A DNA stretch of 64,000 bases from Candidatus Binataceae bacterium (lineage in GTDB: Bacteria; Desulfobacterota; Binatia; Binatales; Binataceae), in contig CAWCTG010000007.1 in assembly GCA_963798375.1 (NCBI GenBank), forward strand, positions 7,851 through 71,850, in the 5' to 3' direction. Positions 3,846 through 51,440 of this stretch are shown piece after piece. The notes below the pieces were generated by a model, which did no database searches, had not been told where the DNA came from, and saw only the letters and a list, made by a program, of their open reading frames with translations. Position 1 is the stretch's first letter. The number at the start of each line of letters is the position of its first letter. The position numbers were made by a program, and so were the translations under genes.

Positions 3846-4567
3846 TGGCTTTTTCGACCCGCATTCGCGAGTACGACCATCACACCGAGCAGGTTCACGC
3901 CGCCGGCGGAAGCTGGGTGCGCGACGTGATGCTCGGGCTGAACGACGGACTGGTCGCCTCGTTCGCGGTTACCTCCGGCGTCGCGGGCGCGTTCGTCACT
4001 GGCAACGCGGCGATGATGGCGGGACTGTCGGAAATGCTCGGCGGCGCGGTAGCGATGGGGCTCGCGGCGTTCATCTCCGCGCGCTCGCAAATCGAGTTTT
4101 ATCAAAGCGAGATAGAACGCGAGCGCGACGAAATCCGCCGATGGCCCGAACGCGAGCGCGAAGAGATCAGCACCATCTATCGAAAAAAAGGGTTCGCCGG
4201 TCCGCTGCTCGATCAGATCGTCGCGCACATCACGTCGGACACCGAGCGATGGAGCAACGTGATGATGCGCGAGGAGCTGGGCTTCAACGAAGAATCCTTC
4301 GACAGCCCCATTCGCTCCGCCTTCGCCGTCGGCTTGTCATATCTGTCAGGCGCGGCAGTGCCCGTCTGGGCGTATATTTTCTTCGAGCCGAGCCGCGCGC
4401 TGATCGTGTCGGCCATCTCGACAGTCGCGGCGCTGTTCGCAGCCGGCGCGCTGAAGACGATCATCACCAGCCGTTCGTGGTGGCGCAGCGGACTCGAAAG
4501 CATGTTGATTGGAATAGCAGCCGCGGGCGTGACTTACGCCGCGGGCCGCATGTTTGCCGAGCGCTGA
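3845..4567 (+). CDS. VIT1/CCC1 family Fe/Mn transporter
   Basis: GTG start overlaps the upstream stop by 1 nt. The LGLNDGLVASFAVTSGVAGA motif and C-terminal TM helices are typical of the VIT family. Confidence 0.8.
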   Translation: MAFSTRIREYDHHTEQVHAAGGSWVRDVMLGLNDGLVASFAVTSGVAGAFVTGNAAMMAGLSEMLGGAVAMGLAAFISARSQIEFYQSEIERERDEIRRWPEREREEISTIYRKKGFAGPLLDQIVAHITSDTERWSNVMMREELGFNEESFDSPIRSAFAVGLSYLSGAAVPVWAYIFFEPSRALIVSAISTVAALFAAGALKTIITSRSWWRSGLESMLIGIAAAGVTYAAGRMFAER

Positions 4568-4587
4568 AGCTCCGCGCCGCGCGCGCG

Positions 4588-4893
4588 TCATGCTTCAACG
4601 AGTATGTCGTCGCCGTCGGCCTTTACCGCGTAGCATCCGAGCTTGACGCTCGCGTCGTCGAGGTTCGTTCCCGTCGTGATGTCGTATTCCCATCCGTGCC
4701 ACGGGCAGGTGATGGTGGTGCCGTCGAGCTCGCCCTCGGCGAGCGGGCCGCCGCGATGCTTGCAGGTGTTGTCGATCGCGTAGAATTTTCCGCCCGCGTT
4801 GAACAGTGCGATCTTTTTGCCGCCGGCCTCGACGAGTTTGCCGCTGCCCTCGGGCAGCTCTGTCACCTTCGCAACTTTGATGAAGCTTGCCAT
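4588..4893 (-). CDS. Rieske [2Fe-2S] domain protein (NirD-like small subunit)
   Basis: CKHRGGPL...CPWHGWEY are the Rieske cluster-binding boxes. Confidence 0.8.
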   Translation of the reverse strand: MASFIKVAKVTELPEGSGKLVEAGGKKIALFNAGGKFYAIDNTCKHRGGPLAEGELDGTTITCPWHGWEYDITTGTNLDDASVKLGCYAVKADGDDILVEA

Positions 4894-4909
4894 CGGGAAT
4901 TGCCTCCGC

Positions 4910-6106
4910 TCAGGTCGTGTACTCCGCGTTGATTCGCACGTAGTCGTAGCTCAGGTCGCAAGTTAGAATCCGCGCGCTCGATTTCCCCAACCGCAGATCG
5001 AGTCGCACGGCGAATTCGCGCTCTTTCATCGCCGCCCCCGCATCCGCCAGCGCCTCGGTCAGCAGCCGCCCGCTCGCGGCAACTTTCACTCCGCCGATCC
5101 ACAGCACCAGCTTGTTGGACTCGACGTACGCGCCGGACGATCCAGCCGCCATCAGGATTCGGCCCACGTTCGGATCGCATCCGAAGAAGGCCGTCTTGAC
5201 CAGCGGCGAATTGGCGATTTGCCGGGCCGCTCGCTCGGCGTCCGCAGGATTGCGCGCGCCGCGTACCTCGACGCTGACGAGCTTGGTCGCGCCCTCGCCG
5301 TCGCGCACCAGTTCGCGCGCGAGCGCCGCCGAAATTTCCCGGACCGCGCGATCGAATGCCGCCTGCTCGCGCGCGCCCAACGCGCGATTTTCCGCGGCGC
5401 CGCTCGCCATAATAATCACCGTGTCGTTGGTTGACATGTCGCCGTCAACGGTGATCGCGTTGAAGCTCGCCGGCAGCGCGGACTTGAGCGATCGCTTGAG
5501 CGCCGCGGGACCGATTGCGGCGTCGGTCACAAAATACCCCAGCATCGTCGCCATCCTGGGCGAGATCATCCCGACGCCTTTCACCGCGCCGGCGAGCGTG
5601 ATGGTCGAGCCGCCCGCCTTGAAGCTTGTCGAGGCGGTCTTGGCGCGCGTGTCGGTCGTCATGATCGCATGCGCGAAGTCGGCCAGCCCGTCTTCCCGCA
5701 GCGATCGTACGGCATCGGCGGCGCCGGTTTTGAATTTCGCGAAGTCGTAAAGATGCCCGATCACACCGGTCGAGGATGGCGCCACGAGTTCCGGCGCGCA
5801 TCCCAGAAGTCGCGCGACTTCCGCGCATGAGTAGCGCGCGAGCCGCATCCCTTCTGCGCCGGTGAAGCTGTTAGCGCATCCCGAGTTCGCGACCACCGCC
5901 TGCAAACGGCCCGCCTTGACGCGCTCCGCCGTCACATATACCGGCGCGGCTTTCACCCGATTGGCGCTGAACACCGCGGCTGCGGCGGCCGGGCGATCGG
6001 CGGCGATAAGCCCCAGGTCCAGCGCGCCCGCCCTGGTCTTCAGTCCTGCGCTGACGCCGGCGAATCGAAATCCGCGCACGGCGGCGGGCTCGAGTTCGAC
6101 TTTCAT
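4910..6106 (-). CDS. argJ: bifunctional glutamate N-acetyltransferase / amino-acid acetyltransferase
   Basis: ATMLGYFVTDA autoprocessing motif and overall ArgJ architecture (about 398 aa). Confidence 0.9.
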   Translation of the reverse strand: MKVELEPAAVRGFRFAGVSAGLKTRAGALDLGLIAADRPAAAAAVFSANRVKAAPVYVTAERVKAGRLQAVVANSGCANSFTGAEGMRLARYSCAEVARLLGCAPELVAPSSTGVIGHLYDFAKFKTGAADAVRSLREDGLADFAHAIMTTDTRAKTASTSFKAGGSTITLAGAVKGVGMISPRMATMLGYFVTDAAIGPAALKRSLKSALPASFNAITVDGDMSTNDTVIIMASGAAENRALGAREQAAFDRAVREISAALARELVRDGEGATKLVSVEVRGARNPADAERAARQIANSPLVKTAFFGCDPNVGRILMAAGSSGAYVESNKLVLWIGGVKVAASGRLLTEALADAGAAMKEREFAVRLDLRLGKSSARILTCDLSYDYVRINAEYTT

Positions 6107-42246: not shown

Positions 42247-43410
42247 ATGAGTTTAAGCCGCAAAACCGCAGTGGCCGGCGTGTATGAGCATCCTACCCGC
42301 TTCGCGCCGGACAAAAGTCTGTTTCAGATAATGGCGGAGAGCGTGCGTGGCGCGCTGGACGACGCCGGGTTGACGATCAAGGACGTGAACGGGCTGTGCA
42401 CGACCGGAATCGGGATGAGCGGGATGGGAATCGTCGGCTTCTGCGATTACCTGAACCTGACGCCGAACTTTGTCGACTCGACTTCGATCGGCGGGTCGTC
42501 GTTTGTGGCGCACACCGCGCACGCGGCGGCCGCTATCCACGCCGGGCTGTGCGACGTATGCGTGGTGGCGTATGGCTCTACCGCGGCCTCGTCGCGGTTT
42601 GCGATTGGCACCGGCGGAGACCGCGGCGGCGCAGGCGATCCGTGCGACCAGTACGAGATTCCGTTCGGGCCGACTACCGTCGGGGCGTACGCGATGATCG
42701 CGCAGCGCCATATGCATGACTACGGGACGACCTCCGAGCAGCTGGCCGAAATAGCGGTCACGATGCGCCTGCATGCGTCCATGAATCCGGCCGCCAAGTA
42801 CCGCGACCCGATCACGGTGGAAGACGTGCTCGCGTCGCGAATCATCTCGTCGCCGCTGCATCTGCTGGATTGCTGCATCATCAGCGACGGCGGCGGCGCG
42901 TTGGTGATAACGTCGGCGGAGCGCGCGCGCGATTTGAAGAAAAAGCCGGTTTACATTCTCGGCGCGGGCGAGACGGTGCGGCACGCGGCGCGCGGGCAGC
43001 GCGATTTTCTGGAAATCGCGGCGGCGCAATCGGGACGGCTGGCGTTCGAGCGCGCCGGCGTCGCGCACAAGGACATCGACATGGCGATGATCTACGACTC
43101 GTTCACGATCACCGTGCTGGCCACGCTGGAGAATCTCGGCTTTTGCAAGCGCGGCGAAGGCGGGGCGTTCGTGTCGGGCGGACGGCTGCGCTTCGACGGC
43201 GAATTTCCGATCAACACCGACGGCGGAGGGTTGTCGTCGAATCATCCGGGGATGCGCGGAATCTTCCTGGTGATCGAGGCGGCCAGACAACTGCGCGGCG
43301 AATGCGGTCCGCGGCAGGTAAAGGATTGCAAAATCGCACTCGCGCACGGCACCGGCGGCACGCTCGGCACGCGCCATTCGGGCGCGACGCTTATCCTCAG
43401 CAATCAGTAA
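42247..43410 (+). CDS. thiolase-like protein (SCP-x/Ltp2-type, probable aldolase/thiolase partner of DUF35)
   Basis: Thiolase fold motifs (…NTDGGGLS…, …GHP.G.TG…). It is immediately followed by a DUF35 gene, as in Ltp2-DUF35 retro-aldolase pairs. Confidence 0.8.
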   Translation: MSLSRKTAVAGVYEHPTRFAPDKSLFQIMAESVRGALDDAGLTIKDVNGLCTTGIGMSGMGIVGFCDYLNLTPNFVDSTSIGGSSFVAHTAHAAAAIHAGLCDVCVVAYGSTAASSRFAIGTGGDRGGAGDPCDQYEIPFGPTTVGAYAMIAQRHMHDYGTTSEQLAEIAVTMRLHASMNPAAKYRDPITVEDVLASRIISSPLHLLDCCIISDGGGALVITSAERARDLKKKPVYILGAGETVRHAARGQRDFLEIAAAQSGRLAFERAGVAHKDIDMAMIYDSFTITVLATLENLGFCKRGEGGAFVSGGRLRFDGEFPINTDGGGLSSNHPGMRGIFLVIEAARQLRGECGPRQVKDCKIALAHGTGGTLGTRHSGATLILSNQ

Positions 43411-45081: not shown

Positions 45082-45501
45082 GTGAACAGTTTCGAAGAGA
45101 TCAATATCGGCGACACGCTCGGCCCGCTCGAGCTGTTCGTGAGCAAGGATCAATGCCGCGCCTACGCCAGGACGATGGGCATGGGCGAGGGCGCGGGACG
45201 CTTCACCGACGATGAAGCCGCCAGGAAGGAAGGGCTGCCCGGGATGATCATCCCGGGCAACATGAGCCTCGGACTGCTCTCGAAGCTGGTGACGGATTGG
45301 ATCGGCTCGAGCAGCGCGTGGCTGACGCGGATGAGCACGACCTATCGGGTGCCGGTGCAACCCGATCACACGGTAACGATTCACGGCTTTATCACGAACA
45401 AGAATCCCGAAAATCGCACGGCCGAGATCGACGTCTGGATGGAGAACGAGGAGTCGGAGCGCCTTGTCACCGGGACGGCGACCGTCGAGTTCAGAAAGTA
45501 G
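45082..45501 (+). CDS. MaoC family (R)-specific enoyl-CoA hydratase-like protein
   Basis: GTG start. ...GLPGMIIPGNMSLGLLSKLVTDW... is typical of MaoC dehydratase. Confidence 0.75.
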   Translation: MNSFEEINIGDTLGPLELFVSKDQCRAYARTMGMGEGAGRFTDDEAARKEGLPGMIIPGNMSLGLLSKLVTDWIGSSSAWLTRMSTTYRVPVQPDHTVTIHGFITNKNPENRTAEIDVWMENEESERLVTGTATVEFRK

Positions 45502-45564
45502 CGCCTCGATTCTCGTAAATTGCAGCTTGATTAAGACCGTGAGGCTCAGCGGCTCCGATGGGTT

Positions 45565-46710
45565 TTACACGGCGCGGAGTTCGGTTGAAATATCGCCGCG
45601 GGTGGCCAGGGTCGCGGGTATGAACCCGCTGGCTGCTCCGATCAGGGCGGCAATCATGAAGCTGTAGGCAACCACTCGCGGCGACAGCGTCAGGGCGAGC
45701 GCCAGCGGACCGAGTGCTCCGGAAACATGCGGCAACAGTTCGAATCCCAGGTATGCCAAGCCGCACCCGAGCAGACCGCCGGTCACTCCGACGATCAGGC
45801 CTTCGACGAGGATTCGCGCAACGATGGAGTTGCGCGTGAATCCAATCGCGCGCATCACCGCCATCTCGTGGCGGCGTTCGCGCACCGCCATCGCGGCCGT
45901 ATTGGCGGCAACCAGTGCGATTGTGAAGATCACGATCGCCGCAAGAAATTTTGCGCCGTTAACCAGAAGCGCAAGATTGCCGGCCATCTCGGTCTTGATC
46001 AGCGCGACTTCGGTTTCGGTAGCTGTCTCGTGCGCCGAATTAGCGAACATTTCATCGATTGCCGCGATCACTTCGGACGCCGATTGCGAGCGATCTATTT
46101 TCACCCAGAACAGGTTTGTGGTGCCGGGCCTGCCCAGCAGTTCTTCCATGTAGTCGCGCCTGAAAATAATTCGAGGTCCCGCGGCTTCCTCGTTCAGCAC
46201 GCCCACAATCGTGAGTTGCAGATCGACCGGATACAACGTACCGCGCAGGATGATCGTGTCGCCGACTTTCCAGCCGTAAAGCTTCATCAAGGTGGTTGCG
46301 ACGAGGCCGGCGGTGCGCAGATTTTCGAATTCCTGCTCGGTTTCCGCGCTGATTTCCCAATCGGGAAAGATTTCGCGGATATGATCGTCGTCGGTGGCGA
46401 GGATACCGATCTGCTCGTTCGGATCGCGGTAAGTCCCCATGAAGACGCTGTAGCCGGCCACTGCCTCCACGTGTGGAACTCTTTCGATCTGCCGGCGATA
46501 CGCTTCGGGCAGCATGTAGGAGAAGCCCGCCTTGCTGTGACAGATGAGGCGCAGCGAGTTGGCGCGGTCGCGCAGGACCTGGCTGAGCAGTCCCGGCAGG
46601 CTGATCAGGGACGCGAAGATGAATACCGAGACGGTGATCGACAGCATGGTAAGAATCGTGCGCCGCTTGTTGCGGGTGAGGTTTATGAGCACGAGCGACA
46701 GGTATTTCAT
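45565..46710 (-). CDS. ABC transporter permease, FtsX/LolE/MacB-like
   Basis: TM1, a large periplasmic domain, and a C-terminal 3-TM FtsX domain (...AIGFTRNSIVARILVEGLIVG...). No ATPase gene is adjacent. Confidence 0.8.
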   Translation of the reverse strand: MKYLSLVLINLTRNKRRTILTMLSITVSVFIFASLISLPGLLSQVLRDRANSLRLICHSKAGFSYMLPEAYRRQIERVPHVEAVAGYSVFMGTYRDPNEQIGILATDDDHIREIFPDWEISAETEQEFENLRTAGLVATTLMKLYGWKVGDTIILRGTLYPVDLQLTIVGVLNEEAAGPRIIFRRDYMEELLGRPGTTNLFWVKIDRSQSASEVIAAIDEMFANSAHETATETEVALIKTEMAGNLALLVNGAKFLAAIVIFTIALVAANTAAMAVRERRHEMAVMRAIGFTRNSIVARILVEGLIVGVTGGLLGCGLAYLGFELLPHVSGALGPLALALTLSPRVVAYSFMIAALIGAASGFIPATLATRGDISTELRAV

Positions 46711-46772
46711 GGCGCAGCTGAGCGGTGGAGGGTTACGTCCGCAATCGAGTTTACCCCCAACGCGAAGCTCGG

Positions 46773-47324
46773 CTAGACCAGGATGGAGCCGCGGAACGGC
46801 TCGTCGCGCGGGGGAGGGAACTGGAGCAGGTTGATGGCCCATTTGCGCGCCTGGCGCAGCGCGTCCTCAGCGCGGCGGAAGATTCGCTCGCGATACATCA
46901 CGGACCATACGTACGCATCCACCGACGGCTCCTCGCCGAGCGTGATGTCGAGCATCCAGTCCTCGAGCTGCGGGCCGCAAATCAGCAGGCGCACCACGCG
47001 CCCGTGATCGATTACGATGCCGCGCGCCTCGCGTGGGATGCGAAACTCGTCCTTGACGCGCTTGACGACATTGGGCGGCGCATGCTGCTCGGTCATCGCC
47101 ACGTAGGCCCAATCGCCCTGCGGAGGATTGGCCTCGCGCGCGATGCGCAGGTTGTTGTCGGTCAGGTCTTCCTTGGCGCGATCCTGATCGTAGTCGTGCG
47201 CGACTTGGTAAAAGGCCATCGCGACCGGCAACTGCGGCATCTCAGTTTCGGACTTGGCCCTTTTGGGTTTCTTGAAGCTGGTCTCGACCCACCAGCGGTT
47301 TTCGACGTTGGGCTTTTGCGGCAT
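46773..47324 (-). CDS. hypothetical protein (183 aa), translationally coupled to the upstream SprT-like gene
   Basis: ATG overlaps the stop of the upstream gene by 1 nt. Basic N-terminus. No recognisable family. Confidence 0.5.
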   Translation of the reverse strand: MPQKPNVENRWWVETSFKKPKRAKSETEMPQLPVAMAFYQVAHDYDQDRAKEDLTDNNLRIAREANPPQGDWAYVAMTEQHAPPNVVKRVKDEFRIPREARGIVIDHGRVVRLLICGPQLEDWMLDITLGEEPSVDAYVWSVMYRERIFRRAEDALRQARKWAINLLQFPPPRDEPFRGSILV

Positions 47325-47860
47325 CAGGCGACCCGGCGGGATTTGCGGGCGTCGCTTCGCGCAGAGCGCCTTGATTTTCGTGCGATCGAAATACGCAGGC
47401 GACGCTTGCGGACGCGATTTGCAGCGCGACGCGTGCTCGAGATTCCAACCCGGGTGCGCGAGCGCGATGCACCACGGCGGCCGGGGACTTTAAGCCCGGT
47501 CACCATCCGGCGCGAGAACAGGTCGGCCTTGCGCTCGGCGTCGGACCAGAACAGGAAGTGACCCATCTCGTGGTAGATCATTTGAATCCACCGGCGCTCG
47601 CTGAAATAGACGCGTCCGCGTTTCCAGTTTTCGGGATGCACGAGATGGATGCGGCCGTCTTCGTAGGTGCGGCCGGCGGTCTTGCCCCAATCGATGTACT
47701 CGAACCATTCGATACGCGGGCGGCGCAGTTTGAAGTATCGGCACATCGAGGAAATGGCGCGGTTGAAATGCGCGGCCCGATGGCCGCGGAAAAATTCGGC
47801 GAGGTTGCGATCGATTTCGCGGCGATGAGCGACAGGAGGAACAATCATTCGCACTAGCAA
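47324..47860 (-). CDS. SprT-like (Wss1/Spartan-related) HExxH zinc metalloprotease-domain protein with highly basic C-terminal tail
   Basis: ...IDWGKTAGRTYEDGRIHLV...MIYHEMGHFLFW resembles the SprT-like family. The C-terminal ~60 aa is Arg/Lys-rich. Confidence 0.55.
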   Translation of the reverse strand: MLVRMIVPPVAHRREIDRNLAEFFRGHRAAHFNRAISSMCRYFKLRRPRIEWFEYIDWGKTAGRTYEDGRIHLVHPENWKRGRVYFSERRWIQMIYHEMGHFLFWSDAERKADLFSRRMVTGLKVPGRRGASRSRTRVGISSTRRAANRVRKRRLRISIARKSRRSARSDARKSRRVA

Positions 47861-48017
47861 CCAACCTCCGCTGACAGGTGATAAAAATCATATGGAGGCG
47901 CGTTCGTCAGAGTCAAACCTTTTCCGGAAAGGGCAGTTTTATAATACTGTTTTAATTGCACCAGAAGTCCAGAATCGTCTCTCCGCAGCGGGTTTCGTGC
48001 AGCGTACAGATGGAAAT

Positions 48018-49229
48018 CTAACCCAAGGTGCCGGAGGCTTTCAGACGCGCGATCTCGTCCCACGTCAGCCCCATCTCAAGCGCGACTTCCTCGGTATGCT
48101 GGCCGAGTTCGGGCGCCGCACGATGGGGGATTGTGTCGGCCTCGCCAAACTCGACGGGGCTGTTGACGACGCGGCATCCGGGAATATTCGGATGGTCCAC
48201 GGCCGCGAAAGCGCCGATCGCTTCGGCCTGCGGATCGTCGAGCACTTCGGCGTCGGTGCGCACGGGCGCCCAGACCAGATTGTGGCGATCGAAAATCGGC
48301 GCCCAATCGTCGCAGCTCCTGGCAGCAATCGCGCGATCTATTTCGTCTATCAGCGCGCCGCAGTTTTGCGCGCGCGCGGCTGAATCCTTGAAGCGCGGGT
48401 CGTTCTGCCAATCCGGCTTGCCGAGCGCGAGGCAGAAATCCGGCCAATAGCGATCGCTCTGAATCATCACGAAGTAAATCCATCGCGCGTCGGCGCATCG
48501 ATAGGAACTCCACATCGGATTTATGCGCTCGGTCCGCGACTCGGAGTGTGGCGAGCGGCCGGTCATCAGGCCGATGGTAAGATCCGACGCGTTCATCCAC
48601 AGCCCCATCGAGAACAGTGAGATGTTGACCTCGCGGCCGCGGCCGCTACGCTCGCGTGCGAGCAGGGCGGCTGAGATTGCGCCCGCCAGGCCCAGCCCGA
48701 CGGCGTGATCGATCATCGCGGGCCGCTGCCCGGGCGGCGACTGTCCCGGCTCGGCGATCGTCGCCATCAGGCCCGAGCGCGCCCACGCGGCGGCGTAGTC
48801 GTAGGCAGGGCGGTTGCGATCGGGTCCGCGATGCCCGTAGCCGTTGATCGACGCGTAGATGAGCCGCGGATTTTTCGCGGCCAGGGTTGCGTAGTCGAGT
48901 TTCATGCGCTCGATGGCGTCCAGGCGCAGGCTGGTGACGAAGACGTCGGCGTGTTCGATCAGCTTGAGCGCGAAGGCGTGGCCGTCGGGGCGGCGCAAGT
49001 CAACGGCGACCGAGCGTTTGTTGCGATTGTCGAGTTCAAACGGCGGACGGATGCGCGCGTTGGGATTGCCCATGGTGCGCGTAACGAAGCCGCGAATCGG
49101 GTCTCCGGTAGCCGGGTCTTCGAGCTTGATAACGTCGGCGCCCCAGTCGCCCAGCACCGCGGTGGTGGACGGGCCGGCGACCCACATTGCAACTTCGACG
49201 ACTCTGACGCCCTCGAGCGGACGGTCCAT
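48018..49229 (-). CDS. CoA-transferase family III (CaiB/BaiF)
   Basis: VRVVEVAMWVAGP...DVIKLE N-terminal signature and catalytic Asp region. Confidence 0.85.
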   Translation of the reverse strand: MDRPLEGVRVVEVAMWVAGPSTTAVLGDWGADVIKLEDPATGDPIRGFVTRTMGNPNARIRPPFELDNRNKRSVAVDLRRPDGHAFALKLIEHADVFVTSLRLDAIERMKLDYATLAAKNPRLIYASINGYGHRGPDRNRPAYDYAAAWARSGLMATIAEPGQSPPGQRPAMIDHAVGLGLAGAISAALLARERSGRGREVNISLFSMGLWMNASDLTIGLMTGRSPHSESRTERINPMWSSYRCADARWIYFVMIQSDRYWPDFCLALGKPDWQNDPRFKDSAARAQNCGALIDEIDRAIAARSCDDWAPIFDRHNLVWAPVRTDAEVLDDPQAEAIGAFAAVDHPNIPGCRVVNSPVEFGEADTIPHRAAPELGQHTEEVALEMGLTWDEIARLKASGTLG

Positions 49230-49360: not shown

Positions 49361-49807
49361 CTAGCGGGCGGGATTAGCGCTGTGCATCCTATGCGGATTG
49401 CGCCGGCGCGCCCGATTAACCGTCAAGCGTTGGATCCGGCTCGCTTCCTTGAGCCGCAGGCGCAGCGGACCGCCGCCGCGGCCGGCGACCAGTTCGGACA
49501 GCCGCCATCGCAAGCCCCGGGCATCCATGCCGAGCGCGTCGCACACGTTGTCAAATGACAACGGTGAAGTGACGCCCTTGGTGAAGATCCAGTTCCAAGC
49601 CTCGTTAAACGAGTTGCGTTTGCGCAGGCTGGTTGACCCGCTGAATTCCTGCACGATGTTGATCGCATCGGCCAGCACCGCCAGCATCAGTCGCTGCTCG
49701 CTGGAGAATGATCGCGCGCCGACCATCTCGAAGAACTGGCTGCGAAGGATAACGTCGGGAAACGGACGCGGATCGACGGCAGCGATTGTGGAGACAACGG
49801 TACTCAT
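49361..49807 (-). CDS. hypothetical protein, possible C-terminal DNA-binding region
   Basis: 148-aa ORF. The C-terminal ...SFDNVCDALGMDARGLRWRLSEL is HTH-like. No confident family. Confidence 0.45.
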   Translation of the reverse strand: MSTVVSTIAAVDPRPFPDVILRSQFFEMVGARSFSSEQRLMLAVLADAINIVQEFSGSTSLRKRNSFNEAWNWIFTKGVTSPLSFDNVCDALGMDARGLRWRLSELVAGRGGGPLRLRLKEASRIQRLTVNRARRRNPHRMHSANPAR

Positions 49808-50279
49808 TGTTCAGCCTCTTCTCCTCCCCCGAGCGAAGAGCTTGAGCATCAAAAATTGGCCGCTAGAAATCGGCGAACCCCAGCAGCATCCCTTATCCGA
49901 CGCCTCATTCCGTCTAATGATAATCGACGAAGAAAGAAACTTAGTGAGAACGCTGACTCATTGCAAGGGAAAAGTCATCGAATAAATTCGTGGCCGCGAG
50001 CCTCGGATTGAACCAAGTTTGCCAGACGATAACGCCGAAATCGGCGAGACGGTATCGCAAACGCGCCCGGGGCGTCGGCGAACGATGCGCTCAAAGGCGC
50101 GCAGCGCCCTTGTTATCGATACGAGCGGACGGTCTGCTATAGTTGAATTGTCAGAGAACGCAAGCGCGGCGCTCGCCGGAAAGCCGGTCGATATCTGGGA
50201 TAATTATTTCGGGGCGCGAGCGCGCCCTGGCAAGGGCGGCGCGCATTCGGCAACATTGGGGACTATTGAATCGGTGGAA

Positions 50280-51440
50280 ATGGATCAGGCACGAAAAGAT
50301 CGGAAGACACGGCAGATAACGATCGGTGGCGCCAAGGTCGGCGGCGATGCGCCCGTGGTGGTGCAATCGATGTGCGCGACGCGAACGATCGACGTCGATC
50401 AAACAGTCGCCCAGGCCCATCAGCTGGCGAACGCAGGCGCGGGAATCGTCCGGATCGCGATGGACAGCGAGAAAGAAATCCCGGCGCTCAAGGAAATCCG
50501 CGCGCAGACCAAGGGAATCGTGCTGTCGGTCGATTTGCAGGAGAACTACAGGATCGCCGGCCGGGTTGCGCCGCACGTTGACAAGATTCGCTACAACCCG
50601 GGCCATCTGCACCATATGGAAAAGTCGAAGACGATCGAGCAGAAGGTGAAATCGCTGGTCGATGTGGCCCGCGACAACAACCTCGCGATTCGCATCGGCG
50701 TGAACTGCGGCTCGGTCGCGCCCGCGTTTCTGGACAAGTATCCGGGCGATCAACTGGCCGCGATCGTCGAGTCGGCGGCGTACCATTGCGACCTGATGGA
50801 CGAGCTCGGCTTCACGCGCTTCGTCGTGTCGCTCAAGGATTCCGATCCCAACAAGGTGATGGACGCGAATCGGCGCTTCTCGAAGCGCCGCCCGGACGTG
50901 CCGATCCATCTTGGCGTCACGGAGGCGGGGTTGCCGCCCGACGGAATCATCAAGACCCGGATAGCATTCGAAAAGCTGCTCGCGCAGGGCATCGGCGATA
51001 CGATCCGCGTCTCGCTCACGCTGCCCAACGAGCGCAAGCACGAGGAAGTGATCGTCGGGCACAAAATTATCCAGGACGTCGCGGCGGGCAGGTTCATCTC
51101 GGTGCCCGATTTCGGCGCCGGGCTCAACATCATCTCGTGCCCGTCGTGCTCGCGGGTCGAGAACGAGAAGTTCGTCGAGCTGGCGCAGCAGGTCAAGGAA
51201 CTCACGACTTACGCCCGGATGCACAAGATCACGATTGCGGTGATGGGATGTCGAGTTAACGGGCCGGGCGAGACCGATGACGCCGATCTTGGGTTATGGT
51301 GCGGTCCGACCACGGTGAATCTCAAGAAGAAAGATAAGAAGATAGGTTATTTCGGCTACGAAGAAGTGCTGCCCAAGCTGCGCGCCGAGCTGGATCGGTT
51401 GATTGCCGAGCGCTCCGCCACTGCTGCCGCTACGAATTAG
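50280..51440 (+). CDS. ispG: 4-hydroxy-3-methylbut-2-en-1-yl diphosphate synthase (flavodoxin), extended form
   Basis: [24 protein letters not shown]-terminal TIM-barrel motif and the C-terminal [12 protein letters not shown]...GCRVNGPGE [4Fe-4S] motif. The ORF is open back to a TTG at 50019. Start chosen at ATG 50280. Confidence 0.85.

Follow-up and report, generated by a model that had tools for sequence, protein, structure and literature searches.

A Binatia-specific gene pair coding for a polybasic HExxH protein and a conserved orphan partner

Here we examined two minus-strand open reading frames (ORFs), P1 and P2, from a Candidatus Binataceae bacterium. They lie in a window, i.e. the whole stretch of DNA analysed, of 64,000 nucleotides (nt) of contig CAWCTG010000007.1 (assembly GCA_963798375.1, positions 7,851-71,850); all window coordinates are relative to it. 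P1 codes for a small, very basic protein with a conserved HExxH zinc-binding motif and an arginine/lysine-rich tail, P2 for a strongly constrained protein without known relatives in family libraries. The genes overlap by one base and, judged by sequence comparison, are a vertically inherited, lineage-specific core gene pair of the Binatia, a lineage of uncultured soil bacteria, and form a two-gene operon. As to function we tentatively favour, at less than even chances, a mini-zincin tethered to a polyanion; its partner, present in stoichiometric amounts, would regulate it or serve as an adaptor, and proteins bound to DNA may be among the targets.

Structure and distribution of the gene pair

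Both ORFs were present on the minus strand where a first-pass annotation, made by a model from the sequence alone, had placed them. As it had also stated, P2 starts on the last base of the P1 stop codon (Table 1). It had read this arrangement as co-translation, and the one-base overlap indeed supports translational coupling. Because the genes are coupled, the two products are probably made at a ratio of about 1:1. The position of the candidate Shine-Dalgarno sequence and the N-termini of the homologs, which mostly begin with MRMIVPP or MIVPP, indicate that the true start of P1 is probably GTG 47854 or ATG 47848 rather than TTG 47860. The pair has its own candidate promoter. It matches 10 of 12 consensus positions and is the sole promoter-like site in 45400..48200; shuffled sequence yields about 0.8 such sites. 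On the minus strand, no terminator-like site was detected 3' of P2.

Table 1. Features of the P1-P2 region. Amino acids, aa; AF2, AlphaFold2; pLDDT, predicted local distance difference test; dN/dS, ratio of nonsynonymous to synonymous substitution rates, here and throughout by the Nei-Gojobori method over 14 close relatives.
Feature	Position	Strand	Remarks
P1 ORF	47324..47860	-	178 aa from TTG (176 or 174 aa with later starts); TGA stop 47324..47326 included
P2 ORF	46773..47324	-	183 aa from ATG; stop 46773..46775 included
TGATG stop/start overlap	47322..47326	-	base 47324 common to the P1 TGA stop and the P2 ATG
GGAGG, Shine-Dalgarno candidate for P1	47865..47869	-	4 nt upstream of TTG 47860, 10 nt upstream of GTG 47854
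Sigma-70-like promoter candidate, TTGACT-18-TATGAT	47887..47916	-	within the 157 nt that separate the CoA-transferase gene from P1
P1 conserved core, residues 1-123	47492..47860	-	two N-terminal helices, GKTAG...IHLVHP strand region, long active-site helix (AF2 secondary structure; invariant columns)
P1 HEMGH zinc-binding/catalytic motif (H97, E98, H101)	47558..47572	-	codons read from the sequence; homolog alignments
P1 polybasic low-complexity tail, residues 124-178	47327..47491	-	55 aa: 19 R, 4 K, 1 D, no Glu
P2 disordered N-terminal region, residues 1-43	47196..47324	-	AF2 pLDDT <50; KKPKRAK basic patch; dN/dS 0.125
P2 N-R-W-W-V-E motif	47283..47300	-	within the disordered N-terminus
P2 folded alpha/beta domain, residues 44-183	46776..47195	-	helix, strand, helix, five consecutive antiparallel strands, C-terminal helix (AF2)
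FtsX/MacB_PCD-type ABC permease	45565..46713	-	Pfam; about 60 nt downstream of P2

Long shadow ORFs, expected in GC-rich DNA, overlap P1 and P2 on the plus strand (46725..47561) and on the minus strand (47490..47891). Out-of-frame products of shadow ORFs, fused to P2 by public gene callers, are on record as P0123 and P0278. These and three further apparent P1-P2 fusions or extensions (L027, L039 and P0280) were rejected as indel read-throughs or out-of-frame gene calls; real fusions were not among them. In two metagenome-assembled genomes (MAGs) a single-base indel in the Arg-rich tail had resulted in a spurious P1-P2 fusion (L027, 4001..5089) and in a shortened tail (L039, 4001..4501), respectively.

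Relatives of P1 were collected by scanning GTDB, with each species represented by one genome, which yielded 310 stretches; co-occurrence with P2 was counted in the best 80 of these. Nearly all of the 80 bear the label Binataceae, Binatus or "uncultured delta proteobacterium", and in addition there are two Acidiferrales and a few generic Proteobacteria or Deltaproteobacteria MAGs. At 90% identity the homologs of P1 form 1287 clusters and those of P2 247, well beyond what chance would produce. Where homologs of the two proteins are named, their sources are MAGs of Candidatus Binatus, Binataceae or Binatia. The first-pass annotation had treated the two genes as one unit, and the loci bear this out. 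P2 is located immediately downstream of P1 in 76 of the 80; three of the remaining four are cut by the end of the contig, and the fourth, L076, carries a permease insertion and ends before P2. Linkage was thus seen in every testable locus among the best 80. The identical one-base overlap is kept in 41 of 81 loci, and most of the others have gaps of 2-50 nt.

An exhaustive profile search with P2 retrieved no more than 77 representatives (E<=1e-3), among which the distant full-length proteins show 25-37% identity and, where named, belong to Binatia. The linkage to P1 persists where P2 is only 28-37% identical (L086, L089, L094, L096). A P1 homolog is directly upstream of the P2-like gene in L086 and L089/L090, and about 1 kb upstream in L094 and L096. 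The latter two loci, from distant Binatia, have the order P1, opposite-strand short-chain dehydrogenase, P2-like gene (3464..5564 in L094, 8582..10510 in L096); the P1 homolog of L096 is missing from the gene calls of the public record.

A search of 72,556 plasmids, 50,697 phages and IMG/VR did not detect relatives, and an origin from a mobile element was rejected on this ground. This bears on another suggestion of the first-pass annotation, a protease-based defence or toxin module. A toxin/immunity or anti-phage defence pair, in which a protease toxin is held by a cognate inhibitor, would suit the compact, overlapping two-gene layout. Yet neither P1 nor P2 matched a family in Pfam, NCBIfam or PADLOC at E<=1, mobile-element genes do not flank the pair in the window neighbourhood, and synteny within Binataceae is conserved under strong purifying selection. 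As phage, plasmid and defence-library matches are missing and synteny is conserved, such a module is highly improbable.

The two proteins

The P1 protein reads MLVRMIVPPV...WGKTAGRTYEDGRIHL...IYHEMGHFLFWSDAERKAD..., followed by the 55-residue tail, and contains the stretch IYHEMGHFLFW. The whole protein has a net charge of +32 and an isoelectric point (pI) of 11.9. Among relatives down to 53-60% identity about 40 positions of the core are invariant, including H97, E98 and H101, and the segment G59-K-T-A-G63 is invariant or nearly so. The dN/dS of the core is 0.11. By these sequence features P1 clearly is a conserved zincin-type protein with an HExxH motif. Candidates for the third zinc ligand are D107, which is located at H101+6 and is a His in homolog P0058, and the invariant E109, with D113 nearby as well; the third ligand is probably an Asp or a Glu. 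Fold searches with P1 gave no structural match. P1 is best regarded as a new, very basic family of mini-zincins, which may be a remote offshoot of the SprT/WLM group.

The tail contains 23 R/K residues, has a net charge of +22 and a pI of 12, and its AF2 pLDDT ranges from 40 to 57. The first-pass annotation had described an R/K-rich end of about 60 residues and had considered that it might be a frameshift artefact. The polybasic tail is genuine, yet 55 residues long, and its reading frame was examined in the homologs. In 81 related loci the tail is always present, in frame up to the start of P2 and always polybasic. Its length is 37-64 aa, one frameshifted read-through excepted, with a median R+K fraction of 0.41 and a net charge of +14 to +26. 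Between genera the sequence is little conserved and is Arg/Lys/Ser/Ala-rich throughout. The dN/dS is 0.31 compared to 0.11 in the core. Because the tail is in frame across 81 loci and has a dN/dS of 0.31, we conclude from the comparison that this is the frame in which it is translated and that the purifying selection on it is relaxed; an artefact was rejected.

The P2 protein consists of a disordered N-terminal arm and a folded domain. The AF2 model has an overall pLDDT of 70.7, with about 80-90 over residues 50-170. The N-terminus had been called basic. It does contain a basic patch, but with a net charge of +3 it is only mildly so. Within this arm N9, R10, W11, W12 and E14 are invariant and V13 is nearly so; both tryptophans are conserved in at least 90% of the distant P2 relatives (25-37% identity). 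The folded domain is even more constrained than the arm (dN/dS 0.043 versus 0.125). It is mildly acidic, and since its net charge is only -3, an acidic DNA mimic was rejected. A Pfam scan of P2 and its alignment members detected no domain, in particular no PsiB and no helix-turn-helix (HTH), and profile searches of the PDB with P2 alignments gave nothing meaningful. In a PHROGs scan of P1 and P2 the sole match was phrog_6596 for P2, at an insignificant E of 0.039. These scans agree with the initial statement that P2 has no recognisable domain. The predicted fold is PsiB-like, and the folded part may be a PsiB/CapZ-like protein-binding alpha/beta domain; an AcrIIA11-like fold is also among the neighbours of the model. 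A predicted binding domain combined with a disordered arm that carries a conserved short motif would be the anatomy of an adaptor or regulator. P2 constitutes a strongly constrained, Binatia-restricted orphan family with a new conserved peptide motif and a predicted PsiB-like fold.

Two stand-alone P2-like proteins, P0267 (L085, 6001..6897) and P0273, carry an Arg/Lys/Ser-rich N-terminal extension of their own of 120-210 aa with a net charge of +16/+17. Their folded domain is strongly acidic (net -13/-14), the RWW motif is absent, and P0267 has no P1 within 6 kb. In L092 a 66-aa ORF with a CxxC...CxxC zinc ribbon and no Pfam match (4800..5000) ends at the P2-like gene; its stop at 5000 abuts the start at 5001.

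A working model, its alternatives and the neighbouring genes

In the model we favour, P1 would be a zinc metallopeptidase of minimal size (about 120 residues), at best distant kin of the SprT/Wss1-like group, with a disordered poly-Arg/Lys tail of 40-65 residues following the core. P1 and P2 would form a complex in which NRWWVE may act as a docking peptide. Through its polycationic tail and its basic core the protease would be tethered to a polyanion, DNA being the likeliest one, in analogy to the basic region of SPRTN. P2 would be a regulatory or targeting subunit which either gates a protease that is otherwise promiscuous or hands it a specific client bound to DNA. The overall result would be proteolysis of DNA-bound or DNA-crosslinked proteins. 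We infer the P1-P2 complex, nucleic-acid binding, protease activity and substrate alike. In favour of the model we count the invariant HExxH core, a weak colinear SprT-like match, the polybasic tail which is universal and selected in Binataceae, the P1-P2 linkage, the separate promoter-like site and the stop/start overlap, as well as the basic extension at the N-terminus of the stand-alone P2-like proteins P0267 and P0273.

The first-pass annotation had assigned P1 to the SprT-like group by its signature. In P1 the HExxH is located on the active-site helix and is preceded by an 'x-A-G ... I-x-L' strand pair, as in SprT-like proteins. Some P1 homologs are annotated at JGI as 'predicted SprT family Zn-dependent metalloprotease'. 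When the P1 profile was aligned with E. coli SprT (YggI) by hhalign, the probability was 29.5%; FEYIDWGKTAGRTYEDG-RIHL paired with the GTSAG..IRL region and HEMGHFLFW with HELAHLLVW. Against an alignment of 30 SprT members the probability was 18.5% over 106 colinear columns. The homolog from L089 aligned with PF10263 (SprT-like) in a colinear manner, residues 48-107 with profile positions 21-79, which covers the strand region and the HExxH helix. Its 17.6 bits, the top score among the P1 relatives, is below the Pfam gathering cut-off of 25.6 bits.

A number of observations speak against the model. The window P1 did not match PF10263 at E<=1. Below threshold, relatives of P1 hit SprT-like in 14 of 40 cases and Peptidase_M10 in 17 of 40, with a best E of 0.02 for each. 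An NCBIfam scan of the members of the P1 and P2 alignments gave nothing significant, and an hmmsearch of the PDB with the P1 profile gave nothing at E<=10. In a truncation control the 20-column HExxH helix contributed about 26.6 of the roughly 28 hhalign score units. With only the N-terminal halves, the alignment shrank to YIDWGKTAG against YTQRGTSAG (score 10.4, E 0.31); the strand region of P1 by itself thus matches SprT without statistical significance. P1 has no 'HG' motif (H-G-x-E-[FW]) for the third histidine, and in the hhalign alignment the 'PHG' of SprT falls into a 3-residue gap of P1. This histidine is H95 in E. coli SprT and H130 in SPRTN. P1 has no zinc ribbon or other zinc-binding domain (ZBD) either, the tail being free of any Cys or His pattern, whereas the PF17283 zinc ribbon is present in nearly all of 120 listed E. 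coli-type SprT relatives. The tail has a much lower basicity in L086 and L089/L090, which are distant lineages, and an Arg-rich tail suits binding to RNA or ribosomes as well as binding to DNA. On the side of P2, sequence homology with PsiB was rejected (hhalign probability 0.09% against PsiB of the F plasmid, no Pfam PsiB match). Finally, the P2-like genes of L085, L092 and L093 have no P1 within 5-6 kb.

For the initial label this means that the conserved HExxH zinc-peptidase motif stands, while family membership does not follow: the PF10263 scores stay below the cut-off, the hhalign probabilities are 18-30%, and nearly all of the hhalign score is due to the HExxH helix. Because P1 misses the Pfam threshold and lacks both the third-His motif and a zinc ribbon, we did not file it as a SprT-like member. 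SprT-like is the best available, weakly supported guess, and the mode of action of P1 may be like that of SprT-like members.

If the tail binds RNA, the pair could form a protease associated with RNA or ribosomes. Tail and basic core would bind rRNA or mRNA, P2 would contact the ribosome or a ribonucleoprotein, and the role would be in protein quality control, ribosome maturation or hibernation. The pI of 11.9 and a tail rich in R, S and A agree with this, as the composition may resemble that of ribosomal-protein extensions, and so does the core-genome-like conservation and synteny of the pair. Since ribosomal or translation genes were not linked in any context examined, we consider this explanation quite unlikely.

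A stronger competitor starts from P2. P1 might be a regulatory protease and P2 its own substrate or anti-factor, as in the ImmA/ImmR or IrrE/DdrO pairs. Upon a signal P1 would cleave, or be blocked by, the disordered N-terminus of P2, the P2 domain would be the actual effector which binds a cellular target, and the tail would only localise or activate the protease. NRWWVE lies in a disordered segment, as docking or cleavage sites typically do, and the genes are translationally coupled. The P2 fold is far more constrained than P1 (dN/dS 0.043 versus 0.108), and P2-like proteins occur without an adjacent P1; therefore P2 should have a function of its own. Yet P2 lacks an HTH or known regulator domain, P1 has no Peptidase_M78/ImmA match, and the upkeep of a polybasic tail of +22 is left unexplained. 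We regard this as somewhat unlikely.

To return to the tethered protease, its client could be proteins bound or crosslinked to DNA. A role in their removal fits the weak SprT resemblance, the fold neighbours of P2 (PsiB- and AcrIIA11-like) and the prediction that Binatota are methylotrophic, none of which is a strong argument. Methylotrophy produces formaldehyde. The phylum Binatota is predicted to be broadly methylotrophic (PMC8262859), and formaldehyde-induced DNA-protein crosslinks (DPCs) are treated as an obstacle to methanol assimilation (PMC13424408). In its boldest version the model would be a two-subunit bacterial DNA-dependent DPC protease which evolved in a formaldehyde-producing lineage: a SprT-related zincin, tethered to DNA by the polycationic tail, would be gated or targeted via NRWWVE by a new PsiB-fold subunit, which possibly senses RecA/single-stranded DNA (ssDNA) or stalled machinery. 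That all of this applies is unlikely.

Across Binataceae the gene order is syntenic: IspG, a 148-aa protein, CoA-transferase III, P1, P2, the FtsX/MacB_PCD permease, two MaoC and PHP, with the identities of the neighbours confirmed by Pfam. Because this entire neighbourhood of about 8 kb is syntenic within one family, adjacency within Binataceae says little about function. A functional assignment from the neighbours (CoA-transferase, IspG, MaoC, PHP and permease) was discarded as uninformative; only the P1-P2 link persists at larger distance.

The permease is the one neighbour from which an alternative can be built. P1 and P2 might be cytoplasmic accessories of an ABC-type mechanotransmission system with an envelope-linked function. 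The permease gene closely follows P2 in the same orientation, a terminator-like site being absent between the two, and may be co-transcribed with the pair; membership in the module is not established. It is directly downstream of P2 in 49 of 84 loci, and in two Binataceae lineages it is inserted between P1 and P2 (L052, 4505..5641; L076, about 4500..5636). Against this, adjacency is little informative in a syntenic neighbourhood, neither L001-L004 nor any of the distant lineages has the permease beside the pair, and an ABC ATPase does not adjoin it in the window. An envelope function is therefore very unlikely. In L001 a lone ABC ATPase gene follows P2 on the opposite strand.

Some further observations concern the neighbours. 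A conserved 148-aa protein without a Pfam match (49361..49807, minus strand) has an Arg-rich C-terminus (…NRARRRNPHRMHSANPAR); in 60 of 84 related loci its gene lies in synteny beside those of the CoA-transferase and IspG. The IspG/GcpE ORF (50019..51440, plus strand) is listed with 473 aa. As the Pfam domain begins at residue 97 and the homologs have 379-383 aa, the true start is probably about 90 codons downstream of the listed one. ARAGORN reported an 89-nt tRNA-Gln(CTG) at 42978..43066 (plus strand), which is probably a false positive because it lies inside a thiolase-like ORF of 387 aa (42247..43410).

Comparison with known systems

Dedicated DPC proteases are well established in eukaryotes, i.e. 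SPRTN, Wss1 and GCNA. According to a 2025 paper an endogenous DPC protease has not been reported in E. coli, and the use of heterologous DPC proteases raises the tolerance to formaldehyde in synthetic methylotrophy (PMC13424408). If P1 and P2 are a nucleic-acid-tethered two-subunit protease, they would offer a candidate with which DPC proteolysis in bacteria can be tested, taken from a phylum predicted to be methylotrophic by nature, and the compact pair could serve as a small engineering tool. If the pair is a lineage-specific regulatory protease instead, it would be of local interest only. The P2 orphan family is noteworthy independently of a DPC function. Our literature search did not find a bacterial two-gene system of SprT plus partner or a link between AcrIIA11 and PsiB.

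With SPRTN, Wss1 and the SprT-like proteins (PF10263, WLM) P1 shares the small HExxH zincin format and a weak colinear match of 'xAG...I.L' and HE[ML]xH[FL]L[FV]W. The third zinc ligand of Wss1-type proteins is at HExxH+6 (HExxHxxxxxH), where P1 and its homologs have Asp or His. In SPRTN a low-complexity basic DNA-binding region follows the protease and the ZBD (PMC7534798), and a basic low-complexity region follows the catalytic domain of P1 likewise. P1 differs from SPRTN and Wss1 by scoring below the Pfam cut-off, by the absence of a ZBD or zinc ribbon, of the 'HG' third-His and of SHP, PIP, UBZ and SIM elements, by an obligatory-looking orphan partner gene, and in that a structural match was not obtained.

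E. coli SprT (YggI; PF10263 plus PF17283) is a bacterial cytoplasmic protein of similar size (about 165-180 aa) with an N-terminal SprT-type zincin, and its HELAHLLVWKH aligns with HEMGHFLFWSD of P1. The C-terminus of SprT is a Cys4 zinc ribbon, that of P1 a polybasic tail without Cys. SprT has no P2-like neighbour, and the relatedness by hhalign is marginal (18-30%). PsiB, to which the predicted P2 fold is similar, is an SOS inhibitor of conjugative plasmids that binds free RecA, whereas P2 is chromosomal, Binatia-specific and has an extra disordered N-terminus with NRWWVE.

The ImmA/IrrE systems (COG2856, Peptidase_M78) differ in that P2 has no HTH, P1 and its relatives have no M78 similarity and the pair is not associated with mobile elements. 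What they have in common with P1-P2 is a two-gene unit of an HExxH metalloprotease and a partner on which it may act. ArdC of plasmid R388 contains an ssDNA-binding domain and a Spartan/IrrE-like metalloprotease domain (PMC7213743). It is a single plasmid-borne anti-restriction protein of 297 aa with a folded ssDNA-binding domain, whereas P1 and P2 are encoded by two chromosomal genes, feature a disordered basic tail and have no plasmid relatives. ArdC and P1-P2 would resemble each other in the combination of a nucleic-acid-binding module, in P1-P2 a predicted one, with a small gluzincin-type protease.

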